Source: Escherichia coli (GTDB lineage: Bacteria; Pseudomonadota; Gammaproteobacteria; Enterobacterales; Enterobacteriaceae). Taken from it: a stretch of DNA of 64,000 nt. The stretch lies in assembly GCF_011045215.1 (NCBI RefSeq), contig NZ_CP049202.1; one strand, written 5' to 3'. The notes below the pieces were generated by a model that saw only the letters and a program-made list of their open reading frames with translations, had not been told where the DNA came from and made no database searches. Positions 4,840 through 53,790 of the stretch are shown here, one piece after another. A program made the position numbers and the translations under genes. Position 1 is the stretch's first letter. Each line of letters begins with the position of its first letter.

Positions 4840-5100
4840 CACAGAAAGAAGTCTTGAACTTTTCCGGGCATATAACTATACTCCCCGCATAGCTGAATTG
4901 TTGGCTATACGGTTTTTAGATGGCCCCGGTAATCTTTCTAGCTCGCCAAAGTTAAAGAAGATTATCGGGGTTTTCACTTTTCTGGCCCCTGTAAATCCAC
5001 ATCAGAACCAGTTCCCTGCCACCTTATGGTGTGGCCAGCCATAAAATTCCTTAAACGATCAGCAATCTATCACTCACGCCTGAGATAAGCAATAATGTGA
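4840..5100. promoter_or_regulatory. copA antisense RNA / leader-peptide control region of the RepFIIA replicon (approximate)
   Basis: position between copB and repA1 with local hairpins; boundaries not determinable by eye. Confidence 0.3.
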
Positions 5101-6765: not shown

Positions 6766-6915
6766 TTACTTCCGTGCTTCGTAGGCCAGAGTTATCTGCA
6801 CCACTGTATTTCTCCTGTGAATATTCAGCTCACACAACCGTTCCCTGAATATCAGTGAAAAACACAACAACGTGGCGCACACAGCGAGCAACCCTATAAG
6901 GGCATATTTCGTCAT
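6766..6915 (-). CDS. srnB: Hok/Gef-family membrane toxin SrnB-like, with overlapping mok-like leader frame to 6972
   Basis: MTKYALIGLLAVCATLLCFSLIFRERLCELNIHRRNTVVQITLAYEARK matches Hok-family SrnB. Confidence 0.75.
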   Translation of the reverse strand: MTKYALIGLLAVCATLLCFSLIFRERLCELNIHRRNTVVQITLAYEARK

Positions 6916-7260
6916 AAACTTTGACCTCTCTGCAAGGAAGAGGCTACAATCAGTAGTGTTAAGGTACTTCATGCAGACCTCACGAGTTAATGGATTAACG
7001 AGTGGGGTCTTCGCATTTCTGGTACCTGCGTCTTGCCTGAACCAGAAAGGCTCAGACACCCGCAGCGATAATACCACATTCCCGTTTGCCGGCCATGTAC
7101 CTGCATTTTCCGGTTATTATTATAAAAACGCCGGGGACGGGGAAAATTTGCTTTTTCCCGTTTCCGGGGTTGGACAACTGAGCAACGCGAAGGCGTCAGT
7201 TATTTCTGTTTATTACATTCTTCTGTATATTTTCTTTTTACAATTCGACACTGCCTTATC

Positions 7261-16864: not shown

Positions 16865-17602
16865 TTAATTCACAGAAACAGACCAGGTGTACCCTGTATG
16901 CCGGTGGTGATAACCGCCTGCAGTCCTGCCGGAAGAGACCTTCTTTGTAACAATGTCAGTCAGGCGCAATACTTCAGACCAGTCACTCCCATGCGGAAAC
17001 TGGATCTGAATAAAAAGGCGTACCCGTTCACGATGATCCAGAACTGTGTCCGGTTCATAAAGCAGACCACTATCAGGAGAAACACGGGACGTTTTATTGA
17101 TGAGTTCGTATTTATCGGCATGAGACAGTGATGAAAGCGCCCAGGTAATATTTTCGCCCTGATGACCATCAATACGACTGTTCCCCGGCGTCCAGGCAAT
17201 TTCCTGCGCATTCGCCACGATGATCTGTCTCGATACTTCTGCCAGCTTTTTTGAAGTACAGAATACCGGTGCCAGCACACACAGGGACAAAAAATTGCAG
17301 CTGACCGCTTCCGGTTTAACCGGACTGCTCCCGGATTTTTCAGGAAAAGATATTTTTGTCAGTATTTCAGTTAATTCCTTATGCCTGAGAGAGTTAATAA
17401 AGTGCATGACAAGCATCATGAGAAACAATATAACAATAAGCCCTCCGATAACCACTAAAAGGTCAGTATCAATATTATTGTTGTACAGATAGTCTTTAGT
17501 GGTCGCTGTATTATCCTGTATCACCGGGGGGTATTCAGTTACAGGCTTCTCAGTAAATTGATTATTCTCACCAACATATTCAGCGATATTGTCTGATGTC
17601 AT
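16865..17602 (-). CDS. hypothetical single-TM protein encoded in the traT-traD gap
   Basis: 245 aa from ATG at 17602 with GGAG RBS; one hydrophobic helix ([21 protein letters not shown]). Confidence 0.6.
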
Positions 17603-17804
17603 AATGACTTTCTCCGGAAGCTTCCGGCTTCGCCGGCAACACTTCACGGTCGCACAAAGAATTTGCACAACCGCTCAGTGTTTTCATATTTATTTCGGAA
17701 ACGCCGGGGAGAAATAAAATTTATTTTATTTCTTTCCGGGGTTGGACAACGAGCAAAGCGAGGCGTCAGTCAGGAGGCCGGTCAGACCAGCCTCCTGAAG
17801 ATAA

Positions 17805-19059: not shown

Positions 19060-21902
19060 AATGGTCCCTTCAGTTGATTCTTTTTCTCATCAATCATTTT
19101 TTTCACAGTCTCTTCTGATGGCTCAGGTATTATCTTTTGACTTTCTCGCTCTTCATTATATTTATTATTCTGAGATAATGCTTCTGTTTTATGGTGATTT
19201 TGTAGTTCAGAATACTGTTTTCTTACAATATTTTCCTCGCCTCGGATGCTGTTCTGAGTATCTCCGATATTACCTCGATATTCTGTGACCATATTATCAA
19301 CCTGATGTTTTACATCATCACGGATATTACTGTCCTGCGTTCTTTGATCAATAATGGCCTGATGCCCCTGATGGTCAGCAATAATATCCTGGCTGCCACC
19401 ACCCGAAGGTACGCTCTCCATTCCTTTACCAATATCGCCACGGGATTCACGCCAGGCATTATCAACACCAGGCTGTATCTGTTCCTGCACAAAAGACCAG
19501 GCCATCGCCCGACGGCGTTCTGCAATCTCCGGCGAACTGGTATTTGTCAGAATAGCTTCGGCATCCTGCGGTGCGTGTTTCATCACATACTGTGCAAACT
19601 GTTGCGACAAATCTTCACTCATCTGCCCACTCATGCTTTCAGTACGGGATGCCATTTCAGCATATTCATGGCTGCGGGTCATATTCGTCGTGTACTGGTC
19701 GTAACTCTGTTTCGCTGAGTTCAGGGCTGCAGACAGCTGGTCCACACGGGAATCGGCATTATTGTCAGTATGGCTGCCGGACTCACTGACTTTGCGACTG
19801 GTAAAGTAATCGCTGGCCTCTTTAAAGTCCTTACTGGCTTTAGCATCGATATCATGTCGAGCATCATGGGTAGCCCTGCTGCCACTACTTGCAGAATGTG
19901 AATCATCATCCGTTCGATCAAGACTTCCCTTAAATCCGCCTCTGACACCAACTCCACCACCAACCCCAAGAATTTTAGGTTTAATCCCCCATTCAGCATG
20001 AGCATCTGCATATCCGCCATACGAGAACTTAGAACCTGTTGATGCCAGTTCCTGAGTCGCCTGCTCATTACTGATATTATGCGCTTTCGCATAGCTTTCC
20101 ACTGCACTGCGCATACGGCTGGCCATCATGGAGTCCTGTGCGCTCATCGTGCTGTCAGCGCCACCGGTGACAGAATCACTGCTCCCCCGGTTAGAACCAA
20201 ACTGACTGAGCGTATTCCAGGCACTGGCAATACTGCTGCTGAACCCATGCAGGGCGCTTTCTGCTCTGTTCGATGCCTCCCGGGCCATTTCCTGTTGTGC
20301 CGCCGCAATCTGACGCGTTGCATTGATACCGACCGGTAAACGGGACATCGCTCCGCTTGCATCCATAACCATATTACCGTCACGGGTCTGTGTGGCGGTT
20401 GCGCCACTGCCGGTCTGGTACATCATCTGACCAAACGACGTGGTGCTGTTGGTGCTCCAGCTGAAGCCGTTCACGTTTTCCGTCTGCATGTTGCCGTAGG
20501 AGTAATTACCGTCAACCACACTGCCTGCTGCACTGGCCGTCGGACTGATAGATGAAGAGGCGAAGTGGCTGTACACACTGGAAAAACCTGCGCCAAGGCC
20601 TTTTACCATCATCCATGACAACGGGGGTATCATGACAGATATATATCCGGCAGTGGACGCCAGGTCGGAGTATTTCAGCTGTATCTGAGAGAGTTCAGAG
20701 AGCACGACCGGTGCACCATTCTGCTTTGCATAGAATGTCATGGCACTGTTCAGAATGGCATACAGCAACGGCCAGGTCTGGAACCACATCAGGGCAAACA
20801 CATAGCCCTTCAGTACAGACAGCGTTAACCTGTTGAAGACCGCCGCCAGTACCAGGAGCGGGAAGATACCAATGGTAATGCCCACCAGAATGGTCTGCAC
20901 CATCGGCAGGTTTCGCATCAGCACATGACCAATGGAGACATGTGCCAGACGCTGTTTCTCCATCGACGAGGTCGTGGCCAGACTGACCAGGCTGGCGGTA
21001 TCACCGTTACGGGCTGCATTACTGGTGATACCCTCTTTCAGGGCATTCATGGTGACGTTCTGGCGCATAATATGGCTGGCAGACTGGCTGGAGCCGTAGA
21101 AATAACTGTAACTGTCACTCACCAGTTGCCTGAATAACAGGTCCGGGTCCGGTCTGCCGCCAAATATCTGCTGGACATAATAATGCCAGGTCTTGCCTCC
21201 GGTATTCGTATCAAAATTCAGCTTATCCTTCAGTCCGACGGATGCGTCCTTACAGGACACAAACGGCTCTGAACTGTGCAGAAAACTGTAATTATTATTC
21301 GGCACCTGACGTAAAGGGCTGGGCTGAGAAAAGATTATGGTGTACGGGTCAGAGGAGGCCATCAGGTCTTCCAGCGTGTATTTGTGATTCAGGTAAATAT
21401 CACCCAGCACGCAGTTCTGGACGTAGTCCTGAAACAGATTGATGATTTCCGGATTCCGGGACAGAAAATCGGTGCTTTTCACAATCAGGTTCGCCCCGAA
21501 CAGCATGCCTGTCTTGCTGTAGGTGGCGCTGTCAGGCTGAGCGAACACCATCTCATAGCCGGCCACCATTGCATGCCCGATACGGGTCGTCAGTGAAAGT
21601 GGCATCGCCAGTCCGACCGGCACATTATCCACCCGATGGACTTTGACCAGGTCACTGTTATCAATAATCTGCACCGACGTGCGGACATTAACCAGCAGGC
21701 TGATAAGCACAAACACGGCCACCCAGCCCAGCAAATCCATCACGTTGTGCCGCTGTACCCATATCACGGCCACCGCGAGAACAGACAATGTGAGCGCAAT
21801 TTTTTCAATGGAATCCCACGTCCTGGTTCCCATAAAGGCGGCAATGGCGTTCAGGTTATTCCGCAACCATTCACCACCGGCAATCACATAAACTTCATTC
21901 AC
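19056..21902 (-). CDS. traG: TraG mating-pair stabilisation / entry-exclusion protein
   Basis: 948 aa with N-terminal polytopic membrane domain; position and size as F TraG. Confidence 0.9.
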   Translation of the reverse strand: MNEVYVIAGGEWLRNNLNAIAAFMGTRTWDSIEKIALTLSVLAVAVIWVQRHNVMDLLGWVAVFVLISLLVNVRTSVQIIDNSDLVKVHRVDNVPVGLAMPLSLTTRIGHAMVAGYEMVFAQPDSATYSKTGMLFGANLIVKSTDFLSRNPEIINLFQDYVQNCVLGDIYLNHKYTLEDLMASSDPYTIIFSQPSPLRQVPNNNYSFLHSSEPFVSCKDASVGLKDKLNFDTNTGGKTWHYYVQQIFGGRPDPDLLFRQLVSDSYSYFYGSSQSASHIMRQNVTMNALKEGITSNAARNGDTASLVSLATTSSMEKQRLAHVSIGHVLMRNLPMVQTILVGITIGIFPLLVLAAVFNRLTLSVLKGYVFALMWFQTWPLLYAILNSAMTFYAKQNGAPVVLSELSQIQLKYSDLASTAGYISVMIPPLSWMMVKGLGAGFSSVYSHFASSSISPTASAAGSVVDGNYSYGNMQTENVNGFSWSTNSTTSFGQMMYQTGSGATATQTRDGNMVMDASGAMSRLPVGINATRQIAAAQQEMAREASNRAESALHGFSSSIASAWNTLSQFGSNRGSSDSVTGGADSTMSAQDSMMASRMRSAVESYAKAHNISNEQATQELASTGSKFSYGGYADAHAEWGIKPKILGVGGGVGVRGGFKGSLDRTDDDSHSASSGSRATHDARHDIDAKASKDFKEASDYFTSRKVSESGSHTDNNADSRVDQLSAALNSAKQSYDQYTTNMTRSHEYAEMASRTESMSGQMSEDLSQQFAQYVMKHAPQDAEAILTNTSSPEIAERRRAMAWSFVQEQIQPGVDNAWRESRGDIGKGMESVPSGGGSQDIIADHQGHQAIIDQRTQDSNIRDDVKHQVDNMVTEYRGNIGDTQNSIRGEENIVRKQYSELQNHHKTEALSQNNKYNEERESQKIIPEPSEETVKKMIDEKKNQLKGPL

Positions 21903-28392: not shown

Positions 28393-28614
28393 GTGATGTC
28401 ATCTCAACTTCAGAACTGTGTTGATTGTGGTAAAGCATTAAGTCGAACAGCCACAACGTGCGGGAATTGCAGCTCAACGGACCCTTTTGGAAAAAAACGG
28501 CGCAGTGATCGCTTTTACCAGTGGTTTGTAGGGCTGTTTATTACGGCTATTATTATTGCTGGCGGATTATGGTACATGGGGCTTCTTGACGTACCGGGAT
28601 TACTACTCAGATAA
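28393..28614 (+). CDS. hypothetical zinc-ribbon plus TM protein, antisense to tra
   Basis: 73 aa; CVDCG...CGNC followed by a hydrophobic helix. Confidence 0.35.
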   Translation: MMSSQLQNCVDCGKALSRTATTCGNCSSTDPFGKKRRSDRFYQWFVGLFITAIIIAGGLWYMGLLDVPGLLLR

Positions 28615-28983
28615 CGACTTCAGTAACGATATCAGTGTTCTGAAATCGGCACATAACGAGTGACGACAATACCGGTTATACCAGTAATGAGGGGTGTCGG
28701 GCTGAAGCCTGAAACAGAGCTGAAACTCACTGTTAAAAGCCCCCTTCACCGACCATCCCCATGCCAGACGTGGTATTGCTGATTCAGCATCCTGCCGCAG
28801 TCGCTGCTCAAGAAGGGCAGCCATTTTTACCGGACAGGCAAAGGCAATATAAGGAGGCAGCTTTGTAACAGGGAAACCATGTCCCTGACAGGAAGCATAT
28901 GTGCGGAAGCCGTGAATGTTCATCGCGGCCACCAGGGCACGGATCTCCGGATCAATCTGATAATACCCGGCAGGTAAAGTCAT
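28603..28983 (-). CDS. hypothetical protein encoded between trbC and traN
   Basis: 126-aa ORF overlapping the trbC stop (tra-operon style coupling). Confidence 0.45.
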   Translation of the reverse strand: MTLPAGYYQIDPEIRALVAAMNIHGFRTYASCQGHGFPVTKLPPYIAFACPVKMAALLEQRLRQDAESAIPRLAWGWSVKGAFNSEFQLCFRLQPDTPHYWYNRYCRHSLCADFRTLISLLKSLSE

Positions 28984-29645: not shown

Positions 29646-30098
29646 TTAATTACCCGTAGGGTTTTCTCTCAGTTTTTCTGCCAGTTTTAAAAAAGCATCA
29701 AATTCTTTCTGATCTGCACATATTTTACTGGCTGTAACCGACACGGTTATTCCTGATATGTTATTGGCAGAGTCTTTAACATCATTATTATGGACGGAGA
29801 CATTATCGGGACTGAAAATATAAACCTTTTCTCTGGGATAATCCCTGTCCACATCCTCCCGCCACTGAATCTGTTCTTTATCAAAACGGTGATACATTAT
29901 TGAGGAAAACCGGCACAGCCAGTCGTCAATGCATGACAGCTTATCCAGTAATTGTTGCGAATGACGGACCTCACTGGCAAGCTGCCGGCACTCCATAATG
30001 CACCGTGACACACCACCATTTGCATTCACAAGCGCTTTCATTTCCAGCAGAACACCCATATCAAGTATTCTGGAGCCATATTTTATATTATTACTCAT
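29646..30098 (-). CDS. hypothetical soluble protein (AT-rich cargo between traU and trbC)
   Basis: 150-aa ORF with no recognisable motif. Confidence 0.5.
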   Translation of the reverse strand: MSNNIKYGSRILDMGVLLEMKALVNANGGVSRCIMECRQLASEVRHSQQLLDKLSCIDDWLCRFSSIMYHRFDKEQIQWREDVDRDYPREKVYIFSPDNVSVHNNDVKDSANNISGITVSVTASKICADQKEFDAFLKLAEKLRENPTGN

Positions 30099-30441
30099 TA
30101 CATCCTCCTCTGTTTTTGTTTACACACTTACCTGGCATAAACGCATCAGAGCACAAATATTTAAAAAACACAGCAGCAAAAGCACACACAAATGCAGCTT
30201 TCAGATATAGCCGGACCAGAAACATTTTCCCTGACATATCTGACTGTTGCCATTCATAAATAACCTCACTGAGGACACTATCAGGAACAAAATAAAACAA
30301 TATTGCAGGTGCCATTACCAGATTAAAAGGAAACCATTTTAATGGTTCATTTATCAGCCGGATAAGCACACAACCTGTTCTTTTTAAATTATGTGTGTAT
30401 TTACTTTTTATCATCTCAATTTTCATAGATATTCCTCTCAT
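30091..30441 (-). CDS. hypothetical membrane protein (AT-rich cargo between traU and trbC)
   Basis: 116-aa ORF with hydrophobic segments. Confidence 0.45.
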   Translation of the reverse strand: MRGISMKIEMIKSKYTHNLKRTGCVLIRLINEPLKWFPFNLVMAPAILFYFVPDSVLSEVIYEWQQSDMSGKMFLVRLYLKAAFVCAFAAVFFKYLCSDAFMPGKCVNKNRGGCNE

Positions 30442-31447: not shown

Positions 31448-32076
31448 TTTCTGCCCTCCTCTGCCGGAATAAATTCCACCTTCAGGAAGCGATCGCCGGG
31501 AACGGCGCTCACCCGTGCCGGGACCTGATCAATGCCGAGGCGCTGGCAGAGCACACCGTTCTGGTCAAAGTAAACACGGCTGTCCAGAGACTTCTGCATC
31601 TCCGGGATACTGCCCTGCACGAGGATAATTTTGCTCTCCAGTGTGGGCGGCGTCTGGCGTTTCATCCAGGCCACCTGCGCCGGATCATCGCCATTGATGA
31701 AATACAGCGTCTGGTTAAAAGGAACATACTGCAGCGGATTCATCACTTCACCCTGACGGGCAAACACCCGCCCTTCGTTATCCCGGATATCCGCAGCCAG
31801 TCTGACGGACGGGTCAAACAACCGGCTGCCGTATTTCTCCGTGCGTCCGATACCGGGCACGGCAGGGGGCCGCAGACTGTTGCGGATCACCCGCTCCTTA
31901 AAGGCATCCATTTTCCGGCCCATCTCACCGGACTGCTCCAGTGCCGTCAGGCGCTGCATGATCACCGTCAGCATGTCCGGCTCCTTTACCGGCCACAGAT
32001 CGCCCCAGGTACCAAGATCGGCGGCGGCCACACTCTGCCCCCATATCAGCAGGGCAATCAGCCCCCGGCATCTCAT
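31444..32076 (-). CDS. traW: TraW pilus assembly protein
   Basis: 210 aa from internal ATG at 32076, overlapping the trbI stop. Confidence 0.8.
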   Translation of the reverse strand: MRCRGLIALLIWGQSVAAADLGTWGDLWPVKEPDMLTVIMQRLTALEQSGEMGRKMDAFKERVIRNSLRPPAVPGIGRTEKYGSRLFDPSVRLAADIRDNEGRVFARQGEVMNPLQYVPFNQTLYFINGDDPAQVAWMKRQTPPTLESKIILVQGSIPEMQKSLDSRVYFDQNGVLCQRLGIDQVPARVSAVPGDRFLKVEFIPAEEGRK

Positions 32077-32453
32077 GGTTCCGCCCTCATTCGCCGGGCA
32101 ATATCCTGCTGGATTTCCCGGGTGATATCCGGTGCCCCCTGTACCACAGCAGGCGACACCAGAATGACCGCGTGGTGTTTCTGCTGCCACGCCTGCAGGC
32201 TGGCTTCCAGTGCCGTGTTAAAACGCGCTGAAAGGGCTTTTGACTGCGCTTCTGACAGTTGTTTCTGACTGGCGCTGTCAAAAAACGCATCCACGGTCTG
32301 TTTCATGTTGAAGGCGACAGTCACCGGTGCGTTCAGTCTGACAATGCCGTAACTGACGACCGTATTTATTGCCAGTATCCCTGCCAGCGCCAGCCACCAC
32401 GAATGTCGTGATACCTTCTTTCTTCGGTCTTTTAATTTCACATCAGTACTCAT
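32073..32453 (-). CDS. trbI: TrbI inner-membrane protein
   Basis: 126 aa with one TM helix, downstream of traC region. Confidence 0.7.
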   Translation of the reverse strand: MSTDVKLKDRRKKVSRHSWWLALAGILAINTVVSYGIVRLNAPVTVAFNMKQTVDAFFDSASQKQLSEAQSKALSARFNTALEASLQAWQQKHHAVILVSPAVVQGAPDITREIQQDIARRMRAEP

Positions 32454-32536
32454 AATAATGCCCCTGTTTTCTCTGTTTCCTCTTTGCGGTAATATGCTTC
32501 CCTGATTTTCAGGTAAGTTAAAAAGGTGCGTTTTAT

Positions 32537-33644
32537 ATGACGAAAAAAATCCTCTTATTTTCCCTGATTTTTATTTTTAGTATCACCGGCACTTTTTCTC
32601 TTATGATAAACGGCAAACAGAAAAAAAGTGCAGATAAAATCATTCCCGCAATCAACGCTAAATATAATAATAAATGGCTTACACACAGATTAATAAAAAT
32701 GGACTATGATAATGGAACGGCTTTATCTGTTATTCAGAAAGCATGGAATAACACCGAATACTTCATCCTCTCAGCCAGAAAAAAAATGCCAGTCAGCCAC
32801 AACCACTCTTAATTTTCTTTACTGCACAAATGATTTGCTTGGCGAAATGTTTCCTTATAAGGAATCCAATATGGTCAGCCCGGCATATGCCAGTCAGTTC
32901 TCTGATTGCGATCTGAATGTCTATCTTCTCATTGACGCAGCAAAAGAATCTGGCAGGCAGATTGAGATCATATTCGCCCCCTTCCACGCTTTTATTTCAT
33001 ATATTGATGATAATAATGCAAGAGCATACTGGGAAACAACCGCCAACCATAATAAAGGTTCTGTTGCGGATTTAAATGATAATCACTGGTATCAAAAAAC
33101 ATTCAATAAATTCTATTATGTTCCTCGTAGTGAAAATTACATAGAATCACTCTACTCTGTACTGATTGCAAATAGTGTAGACTCATCACATAAAAAAGAA
33201 ATATACAACAATCTTAAGCCGGAAATAAAAAAGACACCATTAGCCTATGATCTGTACTACAGCATGAAAAATGAAATCTCGTCTCAGGATGCCGAACAGA
33301 TTAATCTTTTGTTAAGAGAAGACATTACCTCATCATATAAACAACTTCTTCTTACCGGATACTTCATTAAAAACAACAATACAGAAGCAGCCCAAAAAAT
33401 CATTGACAACATACGAGCAAAAAACTGTAAATCAGACTGCATTAGGTTTAAGAAAAAAGTGTACTGGTACTTTTTTCCATCATATCTGATCTCTCAATAT
33501 GCATCGGAATTTGGCGTCACACTATCCCTTGAAGATATATATTATTATTACGCATTCAATATTATCATTATTCTGTTTAGTTCCCTTTTATTTTTGCCTA
33601 AAAGCAGAGATAAGAACAAGAAAAGGCGTGAGAACAATAAATAA
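32537..33644 (+). pseudogene. secreted Y/N/K-rich protein gene, antisense to tra, apparently frameshifted at an A8 tract
   Basis: 91-aa ORF with signal peptide continues as a 312-aa ORF in another frame; both frames read KK across the A8 run at 32779..32786. Confidence 0.45.
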
Positions 33645-34004
33645 CAGAGCAGGCACACCCCCATCCATAAGGAAACTCAGGGGGAGACTGCAGGTTACAG
33701 GCACCATGATATAGCATCCCATCACGATCAAAGGGCGATGACGACACAGTTCTGTATATTCATATAACCCGGTTCTGCCATATAAATCCCTGACAAGCAA
33801 AGACGGAGCAATCATAAACAAAACGCTTACAATGGCATAAATCATCAGCACATATTTTGTTTCTCTCAGAAATGGTTCCGGTGTATTTATTTCTGATTCA
33901 ACAAAACGCTCATACCAGTACAGAAACAGGTCGCCACAGGCCACACTGTTAAGGATAAAAAATAAGACAATATCAGATACCTTCTTTATATGACAAAATT
34001 TCAT
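33588..34004 (-). CDS. hypothetical polytopic membrane protein between traC and trbI
   Basis: about 138 aa from internal start; convergent 3' overlap with the plus-strand ORF. Confidence 0.4.
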   Translation of the reverse strand: MKFCHIKKVSDIVLFFILNSVACGDLFLYWYERFVESEINTPEPFLRETKYVLMIYAIVSVLFMIAPSLLVRDLYGRTGLYEYTELCRHRPLIVMGCYIMVPVTCSLPLSFLMDGGVPALLFIVLTPFLVLISAFRQK

Positions 34005-34026
34005 ATATACCCCTTGTGACCAACCC

Positions 34027-36672
34027 TTAACCCCAGTTTCCTGACATTCGTTCGCCGGACATTTCATGCTCTTTTAACCAGGCTTCCAGCGAAGCCATCT
34101 CCGGCCCTGACTTCTTCCACGCCAGCTGCCACACCGCCTCATGAATACTCAGGCCCTCTTTACGCTTCTGCTGCACAAACTCAAAATCCGGGCCGTCGGA
34201 GCTGTACATGGCACGGCTTAACGGGTCCACAAACAGACGGTGCCAGGAGGAATGGTTTTCCACCTGCAGCAGGAAGGAACTGAACCACTGGTCTTTAGCC
34301 GCACCAAACTTGCCAATCATGTCCCGCTGCAGTGGCAGGAACTGGTCCGGGAATAACTGGTTATATTTCGCGAACTCCTTCGCACTCTGTTTGAGGATAA
34401 TTTTGTAGGAGGAGTTACCCCATGCCGCACGGGCCGCACTGGAGGCCTTGTCAGAGTCAAAGTCGACGATGTTCTGTGTGATGGTGATATAGGCACCGGT
34501 ATGACGGCGACAGGTGCGGTAACCTTTTTGAATAAACTCACCGACTTTACGATTTTTGAAGTCCAGCAGACGCCAGCCTTCATCAATGACGTTCAGTTTT
34601 TTGAGAGTACGCGGCGTGCGGTACATCCTGTTCTCGATGTAGATAATCAGGGAGAACATCACCGCAACCAGCAGGGACGGACGGTCTTCCAGTCCACCCA
34701 GCTCCAGCACCACCATTCTGGCATCATCCCGCAGGGACGGTTCATCAGAGTTAAAATACCGGCCGTAAGTGCCGCCAGCGGTATATTGATCCAGAAGGAC
34801 AATCATTTCATCCAGACGGCTGCGGATGGTCGGAGACTCGACATACTGGTCGTTATCACGGGCGTTTTTCAGGAAATCCACCACATCATCGATGCGCGCC
34901 TTATTCTTTTTAGCCAGCCAGGAGGCCCTGACCGCCTGCAGCAGCAGACCTTCATGTACTTCATCCAGGTTACCGTTGGGGCTGGCCATCACCGACAACT
35001 GGTCACGGACACGCTCCGCTGACTGGTCAATATCAGTGATGTTCGCAAACGGGTTAAAACGCAGGGTTTCACCGTCCAGATATACGCCCCCCATGTTCTC
35101 ACACAGGGACTTGTAGCCATCCCCCATGTCGAACACCACGGCAAAGCCCCCGGAGTCCAGCACGCTGCGGATAAGTGGCTGTATCAGTCCGGTTTTACCG
35201 GCCCCGGAGGTGCCACAGACCGCCATGTTGTAGTTGGTGTTATTCATCCCCTTAAAGAAGATATCGATAAACGCCAGCTGGTTACGGTAGGTGGGCGCCA
35301 GCAGACCTGCCGGTGTCAGGGGATTATCCGCCACTAACGGCATCAGGTTGGCCACATTAAAACTCTCTGCCCGCTGTACCACTCCGGCCTCTTTCAGCTG
35401 TTTAAACAGCCCTTTCCCGGCCATAAAGGGCAGGCAGGTCAGGAAATTGCGCATGTGGTTAAAGCGCGGTGAAATCAGCTCAAAACCGTTTTTACGAAAG
35501 CTGTTCAGGATGTCCTGCTCCACTTCCAGTGCCGTTTCATTATTGTCCCTGCAGAAGGCTGTGATGTTGAGGAAGTAGGACACGACAGAAGACTGGCCGG
35601 AGCCCAGCCGCTGGCGCAGTTCCCCCCACTCCTTCGCCTCCTTTTCAACTGACGGAAACCATTTGGCATAGGAGGTCTTCGACTTTTTCTCCAGGTCCAT
35701 GTACTTCAGGTTGGCTTCGCTGTGGGTTTTCACCTGGTCTTCCACCACCAGAGTCAACGTCAGGATGAACGGGCAGGAAATGGACATTTCCGGGTTCAGC
35801 AGATTGCTGTAGTTGTCGGCCATGTTCCACAGGAAGGCGATTTCCGGGTTACGGGCCAGATGGAAATTCAGGATGCGGGCCGTGCTGTTCCTGCCGTTCT
35901 CACGCAGGCCCAGCGTCAGGTAATCAGCCCGGACTTTCAGGTCAAAACTGTCCTCCACACACTGATAATTCAGATCAGAATACGGATCCAGCTGACGTCT
36001 TTTCGGGTACAGAGAGTCCGGATTATGGTTAATCATCTCCCCGACAATCTCGATGAAAGCCTGTGCATCCACTGTCTGTGTGGTGATTTTTGCGCCGTGA
36101 AAAGAGGCACGGATGATTTTCACCAGATTTTCCATTTCCAGAATGTCAGCCCGGCTTTTTTTCTTCGAGGGAGAACAGTACGAGATAAACACCCGGTAAT
36201 GGCGCAGGGTCAGGGGCAGATTCATCCCCTCCGGCAGCGGGAACTGTGTCGCTGCCGCTTTCATATAATAGGCACGGGTAATGGCGTTAAACCGTTCAGC
36301 CTGTTCACCTGACCAGGAGAACTCACGCAGCCCGTATTCAATCCTGTCACCAACCAGCTGACTGGACATCAGATGGATACACAACGGAATACCGCGCGGC
36401 AGTTTGGTGCGCAGCATATGATCGAGAGCCTCCACAATGGACTCATTCGCACCATTGATGGGAATGGCTTCCAGCATAAAGCCCATCGTGGTGTCATTCA
36501 TGAACAGGCCGGACTCCTGGTTGTAATCACGGTACGGCAGCAGACGGCTGAACTGCGGGAAGCTCATCTCACCGAGGATCTGATTAGCCTGAGAGGATTC
36601 ATCCGGTAATTTAAGCGCAGTCAGCAGTGAATTAACCGCCTGAGTGACGGTCTCAAGTGGGTTTTTACTCAT
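34027..36672 (-). CDS. traC: TraC VirB4-like ATPase
   Basis: 881 aa; Walker A GTSGAGKT. Confidence 0.95.
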   Translation of the reverse strand: MSKNPLETVTQAVNSLLTALKLPDESSQANQILGEMSFPQFSRLLPYRDYNQESGLFMNDTTMGFMLEAIPINGANESIVEALDHMLRTKLPRGIPLCIHLMSSQLVGDRIEYGLREFSWSGEQAERFNAITRAYYMKAAATQFPLPEGMNLPLTLRHYRVFISYCSPSKKKSRADILEMENLVKIIRASFHGAKITTQTVDAQAFIEIVGEMINHNPDSLYPKRRQLDPYSDLNYQCVEDSFDLKVRADYLTLGLRENGRNSTARILNFHLARNPEIAFLWNMADNYSNLLNPEMSISCPFILTLTLVVEDQVKTHSEANLKYMDLEKKSKTSYAKWFPSVEKEAKEWGELRQRLGSGQSSVVSYFLNITAFCRDNNETALEVEQDILNSFRKNGFELISPRFNHMRNFLTCLPFMAGKGLFKQLKEAGVVQRAESFNVANLMPLVADNPLTPAGLLAPTYRNQLAFIDIFFKGMNNTNYNMAVCGTSGAGKTGLIQPLIRSVLDSGGFAVVFDMGDGYKSLCENMGGVYLDGETLRFNPFANITDIDQSAERVRDQLSVMASPNGNLDEVHEGLLLQAVRASWLAKKNKARIDDVVDFLKNARDNDQYVESPTIRSRLDEMIVLLDQYTAGGTYGRYFNSDEPSLRDDARMVVLELGGLEDRPSLLVAVMFSLIIYIENRMYRTPRTLKKLNVIDEGWRLLDFKNRKVGEFIQKGYRTCRRHTGAYITITQNIVDFDSDKASSAARAAWGNSSYKIILKQSAKEFAKYNQLFPDQFLPLQRDMIGKFGAAKDQWFSSFLLQVENHSSWHRLFVDPLSRAMYSSDGPDFEFVQQKRKEGLSIHEAVWQLAWKKSGPEMASLEAWLKEHEMSGERMSGNWG

Positions 36673-36798: not shown

Positions 36799-37161
36799 TT
36801 AACGTTCCTTTACTGAATGAGCATCATTTAATGCCTGAAGTTGTTTTTCGCGTATCTTATTGCGCTCGTTTTCTCTTACCCGTTTCACCTCTGCCATTTC
36901 GTTTCTTTCTCTACACGCTGATGCAAGCTCTTTTGCCTTACCAAGACTTAAAGGTTCAGGCTGATAATCAGATGTGTCAGACTTAATAGCTTCCTTAAAT
37001 GCTTCTGCTGCACAGGGGGTATCCTGTGTAATCTCTGTCAGTTGTTCTGGTGTTGCAGGTTGTTGCTCAAGGTAATCATTGTAAAAAAGACCACATATCA
37101 ACATAGCCATAACACCAACAAATATAAAAGCCAGAACAGATTTTAAATATATCGACTTCAT
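36799..37161 (-). CDS. hypothetical single-TM protein (traR-traC gap)
   Basis: 120-aa ORF, hydrophobic N-terminus, charged C-terminus. Confidence 0.45.
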   Translation of the reverse strand: MKSIYLKSVLAFIFVGVMAMLICGLFYNDYLEQQPATPEQLTEITQDTPCAAEAFKEAIKSDTSDYQPEPLSLGKAKELASACRERNEMAEVKRVRENERNKIREKQLQALNDAHSVKER

Positions 37162-37406
37162 TTCATTTTAGCCTTATATAATTCCCATTGTCGGATATAC
37201 TCCTCATACTGAGCCACTGGCACATTAACGATGACTCCGGCACACTCCAGTTTATTAACCGGTTCAGTAAATGCGCCTGTCGGTATATTCACTTCCAGAA
37301 ATTTACAGTCATTTTTCCAGTATCTCCCGACATCCAGTTCATCCATCGTGAATGACTGACTGGCGAACACAACAAGCGTAATAAAAGAAAAACATCCAGT
37401 AAGCAC
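37158..37406 (-). CDS. hypothetical small protein (traR-traC gap)
   Basis: 82-aa ORF with N-terminal hydrophobic segment. Confidence 0.4.
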   Translation of the reverse strand: MLTGCFSFITLVVFASQSFTMDELDVGRYWKNDCKFLEVNIPTGAFTEPVNKLECAGVIVNVPVAQYEEYIRQWELYKAKMK

Positions 37407-37558
37407 ACTACAAACTAATATTTTTCATCTGCTGATCTGCAGACTGAATTTTTCAGGGATAACAAACATAGCCAGTAAGTTAACAACACAGATAACCACA
37501 AGAAAGAGACACAGGAATATAAACCAGTCGATATTATTTCCTTCGAAGTAGTAAGCTC

Positions 37559-37777
37559 TCATTGCCCACCACCATTCAGTGTTTCCATCACATTGTTCAA
37601 AGGTTCATTTGTTTTAACTTCAATACACTCCCCTGTATTTCCAAAGCCCCTGCCTCCATGCGCTTCGATTGTCCGAAGAACCTGCACGCATACGTCCGTA
37701 TTTGGCATGGGAGTAACATTCCAGCTTCCGCCACCGTTAATATTTTTTATCAGCACAAGAAAAATAAAGGTATGCAT
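37559..37777 (-). CDS. hypothetical small secreted protein (traR-traC gap)
   Basis: 72-aa ORF with signal-peptide-like start. Confidence 0.35.
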   Translation of the reverse strand: MHTFIFLVLIKNINGGGSWNVTPMPNTDVCVQVLRTIEAHGGRGFGNTGECIEVKTNEPLNNVMETLNGGGQ

Positions 37778-37855
37778 TCTTTATTACCTCCAGTTAAATA
37801 TTAATCACTGAATATTCATTCAGTTAACTATGAGGTCAGAAACACCGCAGATTTT

Positions 37856-38329
37856 TCATTCGGATTTACTCTCTTCAGAAAACTGCCGGATGGTATCCTG
37901 TTCACGCTGACGAGTGGCAGACTCCTGCATTGCATCCACTTTCTCCTGCCAGAGACGCCGGATATCCTTTTCATCCCGACCAGTCAGTTTTTTACCGGAC
38001 AGCAGACGGTTAAGCAGTTCCTGTCTCGCATCCGGTATGTCTTCAGTCAGACGCATAAGCTGAAGCAGGCTCTGACGGCTGAGGACCATGAGTGATTCTG
38101 GCAGGAGGGTGAAGAAGCAAATAAAACAGCATACCGCACCACTGCAGGCAAGGACCGCAAACAGGATTTTCAGATATATACCATCAACGCCGAACGCAGC
38201 AATAACACAGGGAATCCATGCAATACACGCACAAAACGCCAGGATGTTATATATTCGGTTATGTCTGCGATATATCTGTTGATGTTCATCCAGAATAAAA
38301 TCGATTTTTTCAGCTTCTGATTTATGCAT
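37856..38329 (-). CDS. hypothetical membrane protein (traR-traC gap)
   Basis: about 157 aa from internal start MHKSEAEK...; two hydrophobic helices. Confidence 0.45.
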   Translation of the reverse strand: MHKSEAEKIDFILDEHQQIYRRHNRIYNILAFCACIAWIPCVIAAFGVDGIYLKILFAVLACSGAVCCFICFFTLLPESLMVLSRQSLLQLMRLTEDIPDARQELLNRLLSGKKLTGRDEKDIRRLWQEKVDAMQESATRQREQDTIRQFSEESKSE

Positions 38330-38543
38330 AGTGTTTCCTCTGCCTTTCCTGATACGCCTGACATTCAACACATAACGTCACACCGGGAAATATTTTCCGC
38401 CGGGCTTCCGGAACAGGATTTCCGCATGCTTCACAGAGATAAACAGGAATACCATGAACATTTATTTTCTGGCGTATCCGGTTTATTCCTGTCATGGTCA
38501 GTTGTTCTGTCACTGAATATGCTTCATCGGCTTCATCACTCAC
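38322..38543 (-). CDS. traR: TraR DksA-like zinc-finger protein
   Basis: 73 aa with C4 zinc finger (CEACGNPVPEARRKIFPGVTLCVEC). Confidence 0.85.
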   Translation of the reverse strand: MSDEADEAYSVTEQLTMTGINRIRQKINVHGIPVYLCEACGNPVPEARRKIFPGVTLCVECQAYQERQRKHYA

Positions 38544-39754: not shown

Positions 39755-40331
39755 TTTTATCTCCGTTGTTTCTGATTGTTCTGTCATCAGGGAAATAAAC
39801 ATGGCATTCCCTGATTTTTCCCGGCAGGGAAGTGTCTTCTGCAAGAACTTCCTTCAGACGCTCATCTGCAGTTGCCACCCGGACACATTTCATTTTTCCG
39901 GGTCGCATCGGATATTTTCCGGAGATCACCGCCAGCGAGACATACATCAGTGCCAGCGTTGCCCATAATGCGGTGAACAGTTGCATCAGAGACTAGTCAG
40001 TCTCCCTGGCATATTCTGCAGCATCCCCCCGGCGAAAACCGCACGTTACAGACGGAGGCATCGCTAAATCGGAACCAAAACTGTTCGAGCAGTATCGGAC
40101 CGGATACAGCCCGGCTGGCGTTCTGCCCCTTACAAACTCGATCTCCTGAACCAGCAATTTCCCCGGTGTGGTGTTGTCCTTCCATAAAACAAACAGAGCC
40201 ATCAGGGCCATTGTGGCCAGTGGCAGAATGACGGCGTATTTCAGACACCAGAACAGTCCTCGCAGAACCCGGGCGACAACATACCGGGCGGCATGGCCCG
40301 CCTGACGGGACGACGTATTATTTGCCATCAT
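39741..40331 (-). pseudogene. traP: traP interrupted by an in-frame amber codon
   Basis: 112-aa and 81-aa ORFs share one frame, separated by TAG at 39993..39995; total about 196 codons as F TraP. Confidence 0.6.
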
Positions 40332-41745
40332 TGCCCCCTCCCTGACTGCCGGACATAAACTGCTGCGGATTCAGGTTGCCCAGTTGCTTCAGCATCTGGT
40401 CAGTATTAAAGCCGTTAAGATGACTTTCAGCTGATGGCGGAACAGGAACCGGACTTTCCGGATTGTCTTCTTCCGCTCTGCTCTGCGTGCGTTCCAGCGC
40501 CATCTCTTCCACGGTTTTCAGCTGGAAGCCGTCCTGGAACACCACGGTCACTTCGTTGCCCGCACCAATCGGTATCACCGGGTGATACTGTTCGGCACGT
40601 TTGATGTAGTAGTCACTTAGCGTCTGTGCGGCTTTCGATGCGCCGCCACCGATACCCATTTTAAGGACATCGCCGACCCCGTAAGCAGCAGTGGCACCCA
40701 GCCCGACAGCCGGCTGGGAGGCGCGCTCCATTCCCTGACCGATACCGTCAACAAATCCCGCGCCCCATGCCCAGCCGAGGATTTTGCCGTTACGCATCAC
40801 CACTTCGCCCTTGATACCGTTTTTACCCCGGAAGCTGACATGCCCCTTAATCGGCATATCAATGGTTTTGCCGTCCTTCAGGCAGCTGATATTGCGGGTG
40901 CGTACAATGGCACGCTCACTGGACACATCCCCCCAGGCTTCCAGACCCACAAAACATCCCGTTGCGTCATACGTCTTGCTGTTCGGCATTTCCACCAGGC
41001 CGGTGATACGCAGCTGCATCGGCACCGTGGATTCATTACCGGTGACAGAGGCATTGGCATCAGCCCCTTCAATCAGCATGGCTTTCGCAAAACTTCCTGA
41101 CGGAATGTACGGCAGTGATGGTCCCTGTTTTCCCTCATTACGGGTAAACACCTTACGCTGTATCCGGTTAGGTACCGGCACAGACTGGTACGTCACCTGT
41201 GGTGGTGGCGTGACACCATTCCCGGGATAAAACGCCGTCGGCGGTGGAACAGCAACGCTGCCCTGCGGCGGGAAGGATACGGGGGTGTTTCCTGGCTGTG
41301 GTTCGCCTTCCGGGCCGGGCGGTGAGGCAGGCATCTGCGGTACAGGCTCACCGGTCGCCGTGACGGGATTAGCACCCAGGGCTTTTACCTGCTCTGCCAG
41401 GGCGGCATTGTCCTGTCCCAGCTTTTCAATACGACGCTGGTCATCACCGCGCTGTTTGTTCAGAACATCCAGCTCACGACGGATTTCCTCATACTGCTTC
41501 TGCATCTGCGCTGCCGTCACCTGCATCTCGGTGGTGGCATGCTGACGCACCTTGTCATCAAAGGTCGTATCCACCACACCGGTCATATCCGGCACAGGCT
41601 CCTGTTCAGCCACGGTTTCACCGTTACCGGACATGTCCACATCAGACAGATACAGTGCCCCACCAATCGCGGAGGCTGTACCGACAACCACAATCCCCAG
41701 CCACAGGTACTGCTTGCGTTTCACAATGGTATTGATACTGGCCAT
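40318..41745 (-). CDS. traB: TraB VirB10-like protein
   Basis: 475 aa, same length as F TraB; proline-rich linker. Confidence 0.9.
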   Translation of the reverse strand: MASINTIVKRKQYLWLGIVVVGTASAIGGALYLSDVDMSGNGETVAEQEPVPDMTGVVDTTFDDKVRQHATTEMQVTAAQMQKQYEEIRRELDVLNKQRGDDQRRIEKLGQDNAALAEQVKALGANPVTATGEPVPQMPASPPGPEGEPQPGNTPVSFPPQGSVAVPPPTAFYPGNGVTPPPQVTYQSVPVPNRIQRKVFTRNEGKQGPSLPYIPSGSFAKAMLIEGADANASVTGNESTVPMQLRITGLVEMPNSKTYDATGCFVGLEAWGDVSSERAIVRTRNISCLKDGKTIDMPIKGHVSFRGKNGIKGEVVMRNGKILGWAWGAGFVDGIGQGMERASQPAVGLGATAAYGVGDVLKMGIGGGASKAAQTLSDYYIKRAEQYHPVIPIGAGNEVTVVFQDGFQLKTVEEMALERTQSRAEEDNPESPVPVPPSAESHLNGFNTDQMLKQLGNLNPQQFMSGSQGGGNDGK

Positions 41746-44126: not shown

Positions 44127-44774
44127 TTATCTTCCCAATATTTCTTTTACTTTAGCATATAAAGGAAGTATCTTTTCCGTTCTAATCATTTCATCCAACC
44201 AGAGATCTCTAGAACTAAATCCATATCGTTTAAATAATTTCATGGTTTTCTTCTTTGATTTAGACACAGTGATGTTCATCTTTGCTGATGAATAATGATG
44301 GCTAAACCCTATCAGATATGGCTCAATGCCTACATATTCATCAGAGGGTACAATTAATTCATTGGAGTATTTAGACACAACAAACGATGACAGATTATCA
44401 TTTGCTACCCAAATAAACCTCCAGATGAAGAAATAGCCGCATGGTGTTATAACACTTTCTATGATCACACTCCATAACGTATTATTAAGTAATATGTCAT
44501 TATTACAATTTACACCATAAATAGAAGAGCATGATTCAATCTCTGCTCTGGATAACTGTAATTTACATTCCAACGTTAAACTATCAAACCATTCATCACA
44601 TGAATTAAAGGACGATCTGATAAGTTTTTCAAAGCAGTTATTTTCCTTAATAAAAGAACCATCCTCGAAGCGGATACATACAGGATATTTTAAAAACGAA
44701 ATAGCCTCTCCAAGACTATGAGGGAAATGCAATTGACTGATGAGTGCTCTTTCTCTACGATCCATCGCACACAT
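44127..44774 (-). CDS. traJ: TraJ transfer activator
   Basis: 216 aa from ATG at 44774 preceded by GGAGG; position between traY and traM. Confidence 0.7.
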
Positions 44775-44857
44775 AGGAACCTCCGTTAAGGATTCTATGG
44801 ACAGTCGATGCAGGGAGTGGCTGCTCCCTGCATCGGCGATTTTCAGTTTCAATTTTT
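44771..44857 (+). ncRNA. finP: FinP antisense RNA (approximate ends)
   Basis: plus-strand stem-loop over the traJ RBS/start, then perfect stem-loop GATGCAGGGAG...CTCCCTGCATC followed by a U-rich tail. Confidence 0.45.
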
Positions 44858-44964
44858 AACGTGGCATTAACCACGTAATCAATATACTAATTATTCTGAT
44901 TATTGTCATCAGTTCGAACCATAAAAAACTCTGATATTTGAACAAAGTCAAAATTTATTTCCCT

Positions 44965-47811: not shown

Positions 47812-47837
47812 CCTGCTTTCTCCTCTCTCTGGTTTTC

Positions 47838-48380
47838 AGCCCCCATCATCTTTTGAGTTTCGGGAGCCGCGGTTTTGACGTTTTGCGGGGACCTGCCTTT
47901 TGTTCCCTCCGGTATTCACCATCATCTTTTTGAGAACCTTCGCCGCAAGGGGCATCACTGCCACGGCCGGAAACGACTGTCCGGGGGCAGACCGCAAAAG
48001 TTTTTGCCTGCTTCTGGGCAAAAACTTTTGCGGGATGTGCATTTCACCCCTGGACTGGCGGAGACGGTTGTGGCTGTATCAGCCCCCGGCGACAGGGGAT
48101 TAAACAGGTGAATGGCACCGGACAGAACAACGGGCAGGGACCCGCCGCAGCGACGTGAAGCGCGGTTTGCGAAACGGCGTTGCCCCTTACATCCCGGCGG
48201 CCTTTTGCCGGGATGCCGGGAGCGCAGGCCACGGCGCGACAGAGGCGGCGCGACCGGAACGGTCGCTGCAAGCCCGGGGTTTCGCGTCAGGGATGGAAGC
48301 CCGCCAGGGCGGAGACAGCTTCGCTGGCTCCGTTCACGACAGCCCGCCCCGCCAGGGGGACGCCCGGAAAAGGCATAAGC
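47838..48380. repeat. ~540-bp structured repeat, copy 1 (candidate single-strand promoter, Frpo/ssi-like)
   Basis: about 95 percent identical to 53226..53790; contains perfect 15-bp inverted repeat GCAAAAGTTTTTGCC...GGCAAAAACTTTTGC and longer imperfect arms. Confidence 0.6.
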
Positions 48381-48709
48381 AGGAGAACAACAAAACAGAC
48401 AATAATCAGGGCAGCAGTAATCAGAGTCAGAACAGGAGGAAAAAGAGAATAATCAAAGGGAAGGTGATGTGATTTCTGACAGGTCATAAACAGAGAAGGC
48501 GGGGGAAAAGAACGGGCGCCGCAGGCGCACGTTCATCCCCGTTCCCGGAGGGAAACGGCCTTCCTGGCAGTCTGGTTGTTCATGCCCGTACAATGCCAGC
48601 AAGGAGAAAGGGGCCACCGGCGAACCAGCAGCCCCTTTATAAAGGCGCTTCAGTGCAGTCAGACCAGCATCAGCCCTGAAAAGGCGGGCCTGCGCCCGCC
48701 TCCAGGTTG

Positions 48710-48868
48710 CTACTTACCGGATTCGTAAGCCATGAAAGCCGCCACCTCCCTGTATCCGTCTCTGTAACGAATCTCGCACAGCGATTTTCGTGTCAGATAA
48801 GTGAATATCAACAGTGTGAGACACACGATCAACACACACCAGACAAGAGAGCTGCGTGGTAGTTTCAT
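48710..48868 (-). CDS. hok: Hok/FlmA membrane toxin, with overlapping mok-like frame to 49009
   Basis: [52 protein letters not shown], near-identical to Hok. Confidence 0.85.
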
Positions 48869-49142
48869 GGCCTTCTTCTCCTTGCGCAAAGCGCGGTAAG
48901 AGGCTATCCTGATGTTGTCTAAGCATGCAGGGGCCTCGTGGGTTAATGAAAAATTAACTACGGGGCTTTTGTCCTTCTGCCACACAACACGGCAACAAAC
49001 CACCTTCACGTCATGAGGCAGAAAGCCTCAAGCGCCGGGCACATCATAGCCCATATCCCTGCACGCTGACCACACTCACTTTTCCTGAAAATAATCCGCT
49101 CATTCAGGCTGTTTACGGGTAATCTGTGTGATTGTTGCCGCA

Positions 49143-53225: not shown

Positions 53226-53790
53226 TGTTTTCAGCCCCCATCATCTTTTGAGTTTCAGGAGCCGCGGTTTGACGTTTTGCGGGGACCTGCCTTTTGTTCC
53301 CTCCGGTATTCACCATCACCTTTTTGAGAACCTTCGCCGCAAGGGGCATCACTGCCACGGCCGGAAACGACTGTCCGGGGGCAGACCGCAAAAGTTTTTG
53401 CCTGCTTCTGGGCAAAAACTTTTGCGGGATGTGCATTTCACCCCTGGACTGGCGGAGACGGTTGTGGCTGTATCAGCCCCCGGCGACAGGGGATTAAACA
53501 GGTGAATGGCACCGGACAGAACAACGGGCAGGGCCCCGCCGCAACGACGGAGAGCGCGTGCGCGAAACGGCGTTGCCCCTTACATCCCGGCGGCCTTTTG
53601 TCGGGATGCCGGGAGCGCAGGCCACGGCGCGACAGAGGCGGCGCGACCGGAACGGTCGCTGCAAGCCAGGGTTTCGCGTCAGGGATAGAAGCCCGCCAGG
53701 GCGGAGACAGCTCCGCTGGCTCCGTTCACGACAGCCCGCCCCGCCCCGCCAGGGGGACGCCCGGAAAAGCCATAAACAGGAGAGGAACGG
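53226..53790. repeat. ~540-bp structured repeat, copy 2 (candidate single-strand promoter upstream of ssb)
   Basis: near-identical to 47838..48380, ends about 20 bp upstream of the ssb RBS. Confidence 0.6.

Follow-up and report, generated by a model that had tools for sequence, protein, structure and literature searches.

The stretch analysed here, called the window throughout, is 64,000 nucleotides (nt) of Escherichia coli DNA (contig NZ_CP049202.1, assembly GCF_011045215.1), and carries on its minus strand an F-type transfer operon in which TraI, TraD, TraG, TraH, TraN, TraU, TraW, TrbI, TraC and TraB are intact. Between traC and trbI lies a rare accessory module of two genes: a plus-strand gene, antisense to the operon, for which structure prediction points to a membrane-anchored enzyme (the enzyme gene), and a convergent gene for a small membrane protein (the partner gene). 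In the window the enzyme gene is broken by one extra A in a homopolymer run (A8), a frameshift that appears to be a genuine slippage mutation with more than one origin. The features of the locus are as follows.

34027-36672, minus strand: traC, 881 amino acids (aa), upstream of the module with respect to tra transcription
32073-32453, minus strand: trbI, downstream of the module, again with respect to tra transcription, with a divergent N-terminus and its own Shine-Dalgarno sequence (AGGGG)
32357-34063, no strand assigned: segment variable with respect to insert-less F-like plasmids, including the divergent 5' end of trbI and the divergent 3' end of traC
32537-33644, plus strand: disrupted enzyme gene, a pseudogene in the window, antisense to the tra operon; with one A removed it becomes a 368-aa open reading frame (ORF)
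32537-32812, plus strand: 5' fragment ORF of 91 aa with the N-terminal transmembrane (TM) helix, made of the first 82 native codons followed by 9 out-of-frame codons
32779-32786, plus strand: A8 run, the +1 frameshift site; A7 in the nearest intact alleles, AGAGAAA-type in most orthologues
32706-33644, plus strand: downstream frame, open over this whole interval in the ORF list, with the 257-aa frameshift product
32907-33035, plus strand: codons of the predicted triad, Cys124 (32907-32909), His150 (32985-32987) and Glu166 (33033-33035), in the downstream frame
33588-34004, minus strand: partner gene, intact, 138 aa with four predicted TM segments, on the tra-operon strand, starting 22 nt past the traC stop
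33588-33644, no strand assigned: convergent overlap of the two 3' ends, 57 nt

The start of trbI at 32453 and the stop of traC at 34027 leave 1,573 bp between them, and the GC content falls to 0.32-0.41 over 32350-34000 from 0.50-0.63 in the flanks; the AT-rich segment of 1.6 kb reported in the initial annotation is thus confirmed, and all the coordinates given there hold. In plasmids and genomes that lack the insert traC abuts trbI, as the initial annotation had stated for F, and in NZ_CP010123 the traC stop even overlaps the trbI start. When the window was compared by BLASTN with this empty-site plasmid, homology stopped at 32356 and restarted at 34064; therefore, the segment also exchanges the first 34 or so codons of trbI and about the last 10 of traC. 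The insert is held by 24 of the 3,484 PLSDB plasmids that match the flanks and by 4 of 5,426 complete E. coli genomes, figures that set it apart from the core F-type tra/trb genes, which are present in most F-like operons. Neither terminal inverted repeats nor direct repeats nor target duplications were found at its ends, and a transposon-like origin was ruled out, given the lack of terminal inverted repeats and target duplications. Polarity of the insert on trbI, through a terminator inside it, was likewise considered and dropped, since no terminator-like site was found there; an Rfam scan gave no match inside the module.

The enzyme gene is preceded by a Shine-Dalgarno-like AAGGTG, 9 nt upstream of its ATG. 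Deletion of a single A restores a 368-aa protein (the initial annotation had estimated about 369 aa for the fused product). The restored product shows 100% identity to P0088, a protein known from 75 index blocks and at least 41 contigs. A single plus-strand coding sequence (CDS) of 368 aa is annotated in CP056356, NZ_CP041414, CP057013 and pN51a, to which the window adds one extra A; both the ORF frames and these relatives uphold the proposal that the antisense gene changes frame exactly at the A8 run, one of only two 8-nt homopolymers in the window. The frameshift halts translation after 91 codons, ahead of the catalytic residues. The ratio of nonsynonymous to synonymous substitution rates (dN/dS) is 0.24-0.33 for the enzyme gene and 0.13-0.54 for the partner gene; to judge from these values, both are real genes under purifying selection. 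In the window itself the enzyme gene is dead, and only the partner and the antisense DNA are functional; the two plus-strand ORFs should be merged in the annotation and flagged as disrupted.

The partner ORF extends in full from 33588 to 34067, and the ATG at 34004, with AAGGGG 6 nt upstream, is its most likely start. Hydropathy indicates four hydrophobic segments and no soluble domain, in agreement with the convergent minus-strand polytopic membrane protein initially described. The 138-aa CDS is annotated in relatives, its exact sequence occurs on 45 contigs, and profile matches to the partner lie beside the enzyme gene in 25 loci. A 3' overlap like that of the window is found in distant modules, where it measures 62 nt (L014), 81 nt (L015) and 170 nt (L017), and in others besides. 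Compared with CP056356 (L001), its closest relative in PLSDB, the window shows 33 differences in the module, clustered in its 3' third (33489-34057); in this third CP056356 is of the NZ_CP041414 type, and these two plasmids encode identical partner proteins. This pattern suggests recombination within the module.

The state of the A run in other copies was taken from assemblies and database records. Several assemblies contribute database records that match the two frameshift products, of 91 and 257 aa, exactly (QIF16477.1, MXC53907.1, EFK5197625.1, WP_160521696/7), and the 91-aa product (P0089, WP_160521696.1) occurs on 3-4 contigs. The A8 allele is also found in GCA_009820175.1, identical to the window across 2.8 kb, and in the Logan assembly of SRR3213947, whose flanks are 2-5% different from those of the window. 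Comparison with seven A7 loci revealed two flank haplotypes, and A8 is present on both. In the first, the window and a second A8 locus (L039) match four intact loci with A7 (L044, L046, L049, L050) with 0-1 differences in the module, A7 versus A8 being the sole one that separates the window from those four; in the second, an A8 locus (L038) has the flanks and the T at 33657 of three A7 loci (L045, L047, L048). Moreover, along a block of 11.6 kb with 97.9% identity to CP056356, no isolated 1-nt indel other than the extra A was seen, a finding by which pervasive homopolymer error across the window was ruled out. The presence of A8 in independent assemblies and on two haplotypes therefore argues for a real slipped-strand mutation with at least two origins, while the lack of any other isolated 1-nt indel in the block makes a one-off sequencing error unlikely. 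Two independent +1 slips are the simplest reading of A8 on the two haplotypes.

The enzyme gene has been lost by other routes as well. Four loci (L034-L037) carry a stop codon at W70 (TGG to TAG), and the product of this allele is found in 68 index blocks. A third lineage (L008-L011, on at least 23 contigs) has lost 1 nt from an A run at codons 2-5, which puts the ATG out of frame; therefore, the first usable start would be Met23, beyond the first TM helix. In each of the three knock-out lineages the partner ORF remains intact. Two more alleles were left out of the count of independent knock-outs because their assemblies may be error-prone: that of CP101951 (L056) has an additional T at codon 120, in an assembly where traC is unannotated too, and that of NZ_CP076277 (L057) has two additional A residues, in A6 and A8 runs at codons 218 and 230. 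On the evidence of these comparisons, A8 is a real heritable mutation with at least two origins, and it stands among at least three independent knock-outs of the enzyme gene.

The history of the run itself bears on whether it works as a switch. At this site most orthologues have AGAGAAAAATG (Arg-Glu-Lys-Cys) or AGAGAAGGATG; the site reads AGAGAAAAA in most relatives, and A7 is confined to one sub-lineage. The form AGAAAAAAATG occurs only in the sub-lineage of the window, made by a recent G-to-A change that replaces Glu with Lys. The G-to-A substitution thus gave rise to A7 in one sub-lineage, and the eighth A was added afterwards by replication slippage. The first 250 nt of the enzyme gene contain three A runs of at least 7, which makes such runs about five times as dense as elsewhere in the window, and this richness makes the gene an easy target for slippage. 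Since the run is not conserved and the gene has been inactivated in other ways, the data argue for recurrent gene loss and not for an evolved contingency locus; some of the losses came about through slippage at recently formed runs, and the whole looks like recurrent loss of function.

The initial annotation had raised the possibility of a slipped-strand phase-variation switch. Its slippage component is sustained by the A7 of the nearest intact alleles next to the A8 of the window, while the notion of an evolved switch fails on the lack of conservation of the run. As in homopolymer contingency loci, a mononucleotide run within the coding region shifts the frame (A7 is in frame, A8 is out), and at least two independent +1 events, each from A7, are seen here; the abundance of A runs near the 5' end and the loss of frame at an A run beside the start codon in another lineage would also fit a reversible switch for the enzyme. 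However, a contingency tract would be retained by the orthologues, and its on and off lengths would both occur among many lineages, whereas this one is short, is missing in most orthologues and is the product of a recent Glu-to-Lys substitution. Among the alleles compared no A6 or A9 variant was seen at the site, so that, of the A7 and A9 variants that were to be looked for in related plasmids, only A7 turned up, in its one sub-lineage. Runs of seven or eight A are short for efficient switching. In addition, an irreversible nonsense codon also ends the gene in the lineage found in 68 index blocks, and the richness in A runs is explained by a coding sequence that is AT-rich and Lys-rich. A functional reversible switch is, on balance, improbable.

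Still less probable is that the A8 allele leaks full-length enzyme, through slippage of RNA polymerase or a +1 ribosomal shift. The downstream frame is indeed +1 to the upstream one, with an overlap of 107 nt, and E. coli RNA polymerase is known to slip on long A/T runs; however, a run that is not conserved cannot be a selected recoding site, and slippage on eight A residues is expected to be inefficient.

That the extra A is an error of sequencing or assembly, and the gene intact in the real plasmid, had been offered initially as an alternative, and is very unlikely. Homopolymers are classic sites of indel error, the nearest relatives differ by a single base only, and two relatives contain suspicious extra bases of a similar kind (the two A residues of L057, and the T of L056 with its unannotated traC). 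Against this stand the frameshift products of QIF16477.1, MXC53907.1 and EFK5197625.1, the same allele in the independent Logan assembly on a different backbone, the two haplotypes, and the absence of a further isolated 1-nt indel in 11.6 kb together with large tra genes that are all intact. Finally, that the two plus-strand ORFs are separate genuine genes is hardly credible: the separate annotation of WP_160521696.1 and WP_160521697.1 in some records, which might pass for the independent homologs that would have marked them as two genes, comes from products of the same A8 allele, all other relatives encode one protein of 346 to 369 aa, as do distant homologues of 20-38% identity, and the structural model is one compact fold across the junction.

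The wider family of the enzyme was obtained by an exhaustive profile search, as a word-indexed protein search reached only relatives of at least 78% identity; it returned 79 representatives, 40 of them below 1e-30. Nearly all members are 340-430 aa long, with a hydrophobic segment at each end. An alignment of 50 family sequences was used as input for AlphaFold2 and gave a model with a mean predicted local distance difference test (pLDDT) of 93.5 and a predicted template modelling score (pTM) of 0.89; a model made from a shallow alignment of 9 sequences (pLDDT 51) was discarded. TM helices are predicted at residues 2-27 and 331-350, and hydropathy also places one at both ends. In the predicted alpha/beta core a helix (124-137) begins with Cys124, and His150 and Glu166 lie on neighbouring strands (150-156 and 162-166); the core is followed by a region of helical repeats at roughly 200-325. 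In the alignment the Cys is conserved in 49 of 50 sequences and the His in all 50, while at the third position 48 sequences have Glu and 2 have Asp; 46 of 50 retain the cysteine pair 84/96, and as many retain 297/301. Such conservation speaks for an active enzyme.

A search of solved structures with the model returned LapG (8.5), a bacterial transglutaminase (7.8), TglA (7.4), the putative transglutaminase-like protease 3isr (7.0) and arylamine N-acetyltransferases; the best solved match was menin, which came up again with Foldseek against the PDB. Foldseek against AFDB gave family members labelled 'transglutaminase-like domain-containing', followed by proteins with a SirB1 N-terminal domain and tetratricopeptide repeats (TPR). 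A profile search of PDB sequences yielded only weak TPR hits, at residues of about 250-303. Neither the enzyme nor the partner was matched by Pfam (E <= 0.001), NCBIfam, PADLOC or PHROG models, and across the 50 family members Pfam gave one TPR_19 hit alone, with no Transglut_core, Transglut_core2, Peptidase_C93 or TPR_9. The fold and the conserved residues place the protein in the transglutaminase/papain-like superfamily, to which no curated profile assigns it; by both it is predicted to have a Cys-His-Glu core of this type joined to TPR-like helices. The TM helices at both ends, the strongly basic, Lys/Arg-rich C-terminal tail and the conserved cysteine pairs point to an inner-membrane protein with its large domain in the periplasm, tethered at both ends. 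Of the secreted signal-peptide protein first proposed, the antisense gene is retained; free secretion does not agree with a TM helix at both the N- and the C-terminus.

Several known proteins resemble this architecture in part. The BTLCP family (LapG, PDB 4fgo; Caulobacter HvyA) consists of soluble proteins with Asp as third residue of the triad, whereas the putative enzyme studied here has Glu, two TM tethers and an additional TPR-like domain, and is matched by no Pfam profile. LapG-type proteins are soluble, with a cleaved signal peptide and a LapD-like receptor; here TM helices lie at both ends, no LapD-like gene is found in the neighbourhood, and the partner is a four-TM protein unlike that receptor. 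Menin and the SirB1/YchA-like proteins share the fusion of a transglutaminase-like core to TPR repeats, menin being a eukaryotic non-catalytic scaffold; unlike these, the enzyme has a conserved Cys-His-Glu set, two TM anchors and conserved cysteine pairs. SirB1-like proteins are cytoplasmic.

In the F-like plasmids of E. coli and Salmonella, trbI and traC flank the pair in every case; members further removed occupy other junctions of conjugation operons, listed here by system.

traC/trbI, F-type: the window and its close relatives
traU/trbC, F-type: L014, L041, L043
traH/trbB, F-type: L017, L022, L023, L025, L051, L055
traD/traT, F-type: L024
traQ/traF, F-type: L040
TraI-lipoprotein gene/DotB-like ATPase gene (traI/traJ-like), I-type: L015
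traT/traU-like, I-type: L054

The enzyme gene runs antisense to the operon at each of the seven junctions, of which five are F-type and two I-type; were insertions independent and orientation random, seven out of seven would occur at a rough figure of 1/128. A convergent small hydrophobic ORF overlaps the 3' end of the enzyme gene at every copy examined, a set that leaves out L051, L054 and L055; it was recognised by profile in L014, L015, L017, L022, L023 and L025, and by eye in L024, L040, L041 and L043. This ORF is on the operon strand, between the upstream tra gene and the enzyme 3' end. The GC content of the module is below that of the host operon in three settings, and 102 of the 112 PLSDB plasmids with a family member (91%) are typed as conjugative.

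Searches of the literature, including the comparative paper on F plasmids (PMC5102898), turned up no account of either the insert or the protein family. In itself the frameshift is ordinary; the enzyme/partner module is a variant, so far undescribed, of known kinds. Like artA of plasmid F and the AS-traG RNA, known antisense elements of the F tra operon, the enzyme gene is encoded opposite to the long tra transcript; however, artA lies at trbA/traQ and the products are unrelated, and the module, a rare insert of two genes of which the partner is on the sense strand, recurs at unrelated positions and in I-type systems too. An AS-traG antisense RNA is itself detected by Rfam in the window, inside traG (21077-21162, plus strand), and ArtA is annotated in NZ_CP010123. 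The module also recalls the hotspots of SXT/R391 integrative and conjugative elements, where lower-GC accessory DNA sits at intergenic junctions of conserved transfer genes without disrupting them. In the SXT/R391 hotspots, many cargos share one junction, whereas here one module is found at many junctions and in one orientation.

As to how the intact module would work, no terminator was found within the insert and the partner starts 22 nt past traC, so the tra transcript should cross the partner and then run through the enzyme gene in antisense. The partner would be read as part of this transcript, and the enzyme gene from a promoter of its own, head-on to it. The head-on arrangement would result in reciprocal expression, the enzyme being made when the transfer genes are silent and the partner when they are on. 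The large domain may act in the periplasm as a cysteine protease or transglutaminase, as its predicted structure suggests, and the placement of the module points to a candidate substrate among the proteins of the envelope or mating apparatus, which the TPR part would hold. The four-TM partner would restrain the enzyme, or shield against it, within the membrane. That the enzyme has been lost several times while the partner was kept suggests that the enzyme is costly or limits transfer. Taken as a whole, this reading, namely a two-gene module whose enzyme gene was knocked out by slippage at A8 and whose parts work together in the manner proposed, is considered probable.

A number of observations weigh against it. 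The two +1 events would fit a hypermutable switch too, and a culture may contain a mixed A7/A8 population. Because no curated model matches, the enzyme class rests on predicted structure and conserved residues, and the best solved match is a scaffold devoid of catalysis; at the N-terminal end, several lysines that follow the first TM helix in this allele weaken the positive-inside argument. A simple scan upstream of the enzyme gene gave no strong sigma-70 promoter. Moreover, several family members (L042, L053, L030, L029, L019) lie outside conjugation operons and have no partner; members so placed are found on a Klebsiella MOBH plasmid, a Providencia plasmid, a Gilliamella and an Enterobacter chromosome, and as an Arsenophonus copy flanked by insertion sequences. 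The link to conjugation is therefore not obligatory. The contexts of L026-L032 were partly annotated, by BLAST to a reference set and by eye. On the chromosome of Enterobacter sp. 10-1 (L029, 5295-9077) a 415-aa member was seen by eye downstream of ORFs resembling baseplate or lipoprotein components of a type VI secretion system, on the same strand.

The main rival with regard to function is a plain toxin-immunity or addiction pair, in which the enzyme would damage the envelope and the four-TM protein would confer immunity, and nothing would tie the pair specifically to conjugation. Linkage between the two genes is tight and their overlap conserved, the partner is small, polytopic and fast-evolving, the GC content is below that of the host operon in three different settings, and the enzyme is lost repeatedly while the partner survives in every one of the three knock-out lineages. 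However, the enzyme sits in the membrane of the very cell that produces it and no route of delivery is evident, the PADLOC defence and toxin models gave no hit, solitary members without a partner exist, and the consistent antisense placement at seven mating-pair-formation junctions is left unexplained. We regard such a pair as possible, yet doubtful.

A stronger version of the preferred reading, which is likewise tentative and not favoured, holds that the module is specialised for life inside conjugation operons, enzyme and partner replacing each other as the operon turns on and off. With the transfer genes silent, the enzyme would act on proteins of the mating apparatus or the envelope, and might dismantle pili, exclude rival plasmids or block pilus-specific phages; with transfer on, the co-transcribed partner would protect the apparatus. 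Knock-outs such as A8 would then represent selected de-repression, comparable to the loss of finO in F.

If the enzyme does act on the transfer machinery or the envelope, it would constitute a new accessory control on plasmid spread, one that would touch resistance and virulence plasmids of E. coli and Salmonella. The frameshift alone makes an ordinary pseudogene; the family to which the broken gene belongs is uncharacterised and is found on about 112 sequenced plasmids. The natural A7, A8 and stop-codon alleles on near-identical backbones provide isogenic material.

Other features were recorded in the window. The traP gene (39993-40331, minus strand) looks truncated: its 112 aa match the TraP model, which has 197 positions, at positions 1-113 only and fall short of the curated cut-off, a divergent patch covers 40046-40127, and the region just downstream of traP is rich in small indels compared with two relatives. 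In traB, at 40928, the window has C6 and NZ_CP010123 (L013) has C7; traB is missing from the gene table of the latter, where it may be frameshifted or affected by a sequencing error. Further sense-strand ORFs lie on the minus strand between core tra genes, mostly in AT-rich patches (16865-17668, 28603-28983, 29646-30441 and 36799-38371): one of 267 aa between traD and traT, one of 126 aa between trbC and traN, two of 150 and 116 aa between traU and trbC, and four of 120, 82, 72 and 171 aa between traC and traR. NCBIfam models gave no match for these, and similar ORFs are annotated as hypothetical in relatives. Rfam identified FinP with the traJ 5' untranslated region (44768-44876), a CopA-like RNA (4889-4979) and two sok antitoxin RNAs (6905-7061 and 48866-49037), which imply two hok/sok loci. 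In the leading region, two segments of about 550 bp each (47832-48417 and 53227-53783) both align to two repeated places in CP056356, a sign of some repeated element close to the two hok/sok loci.

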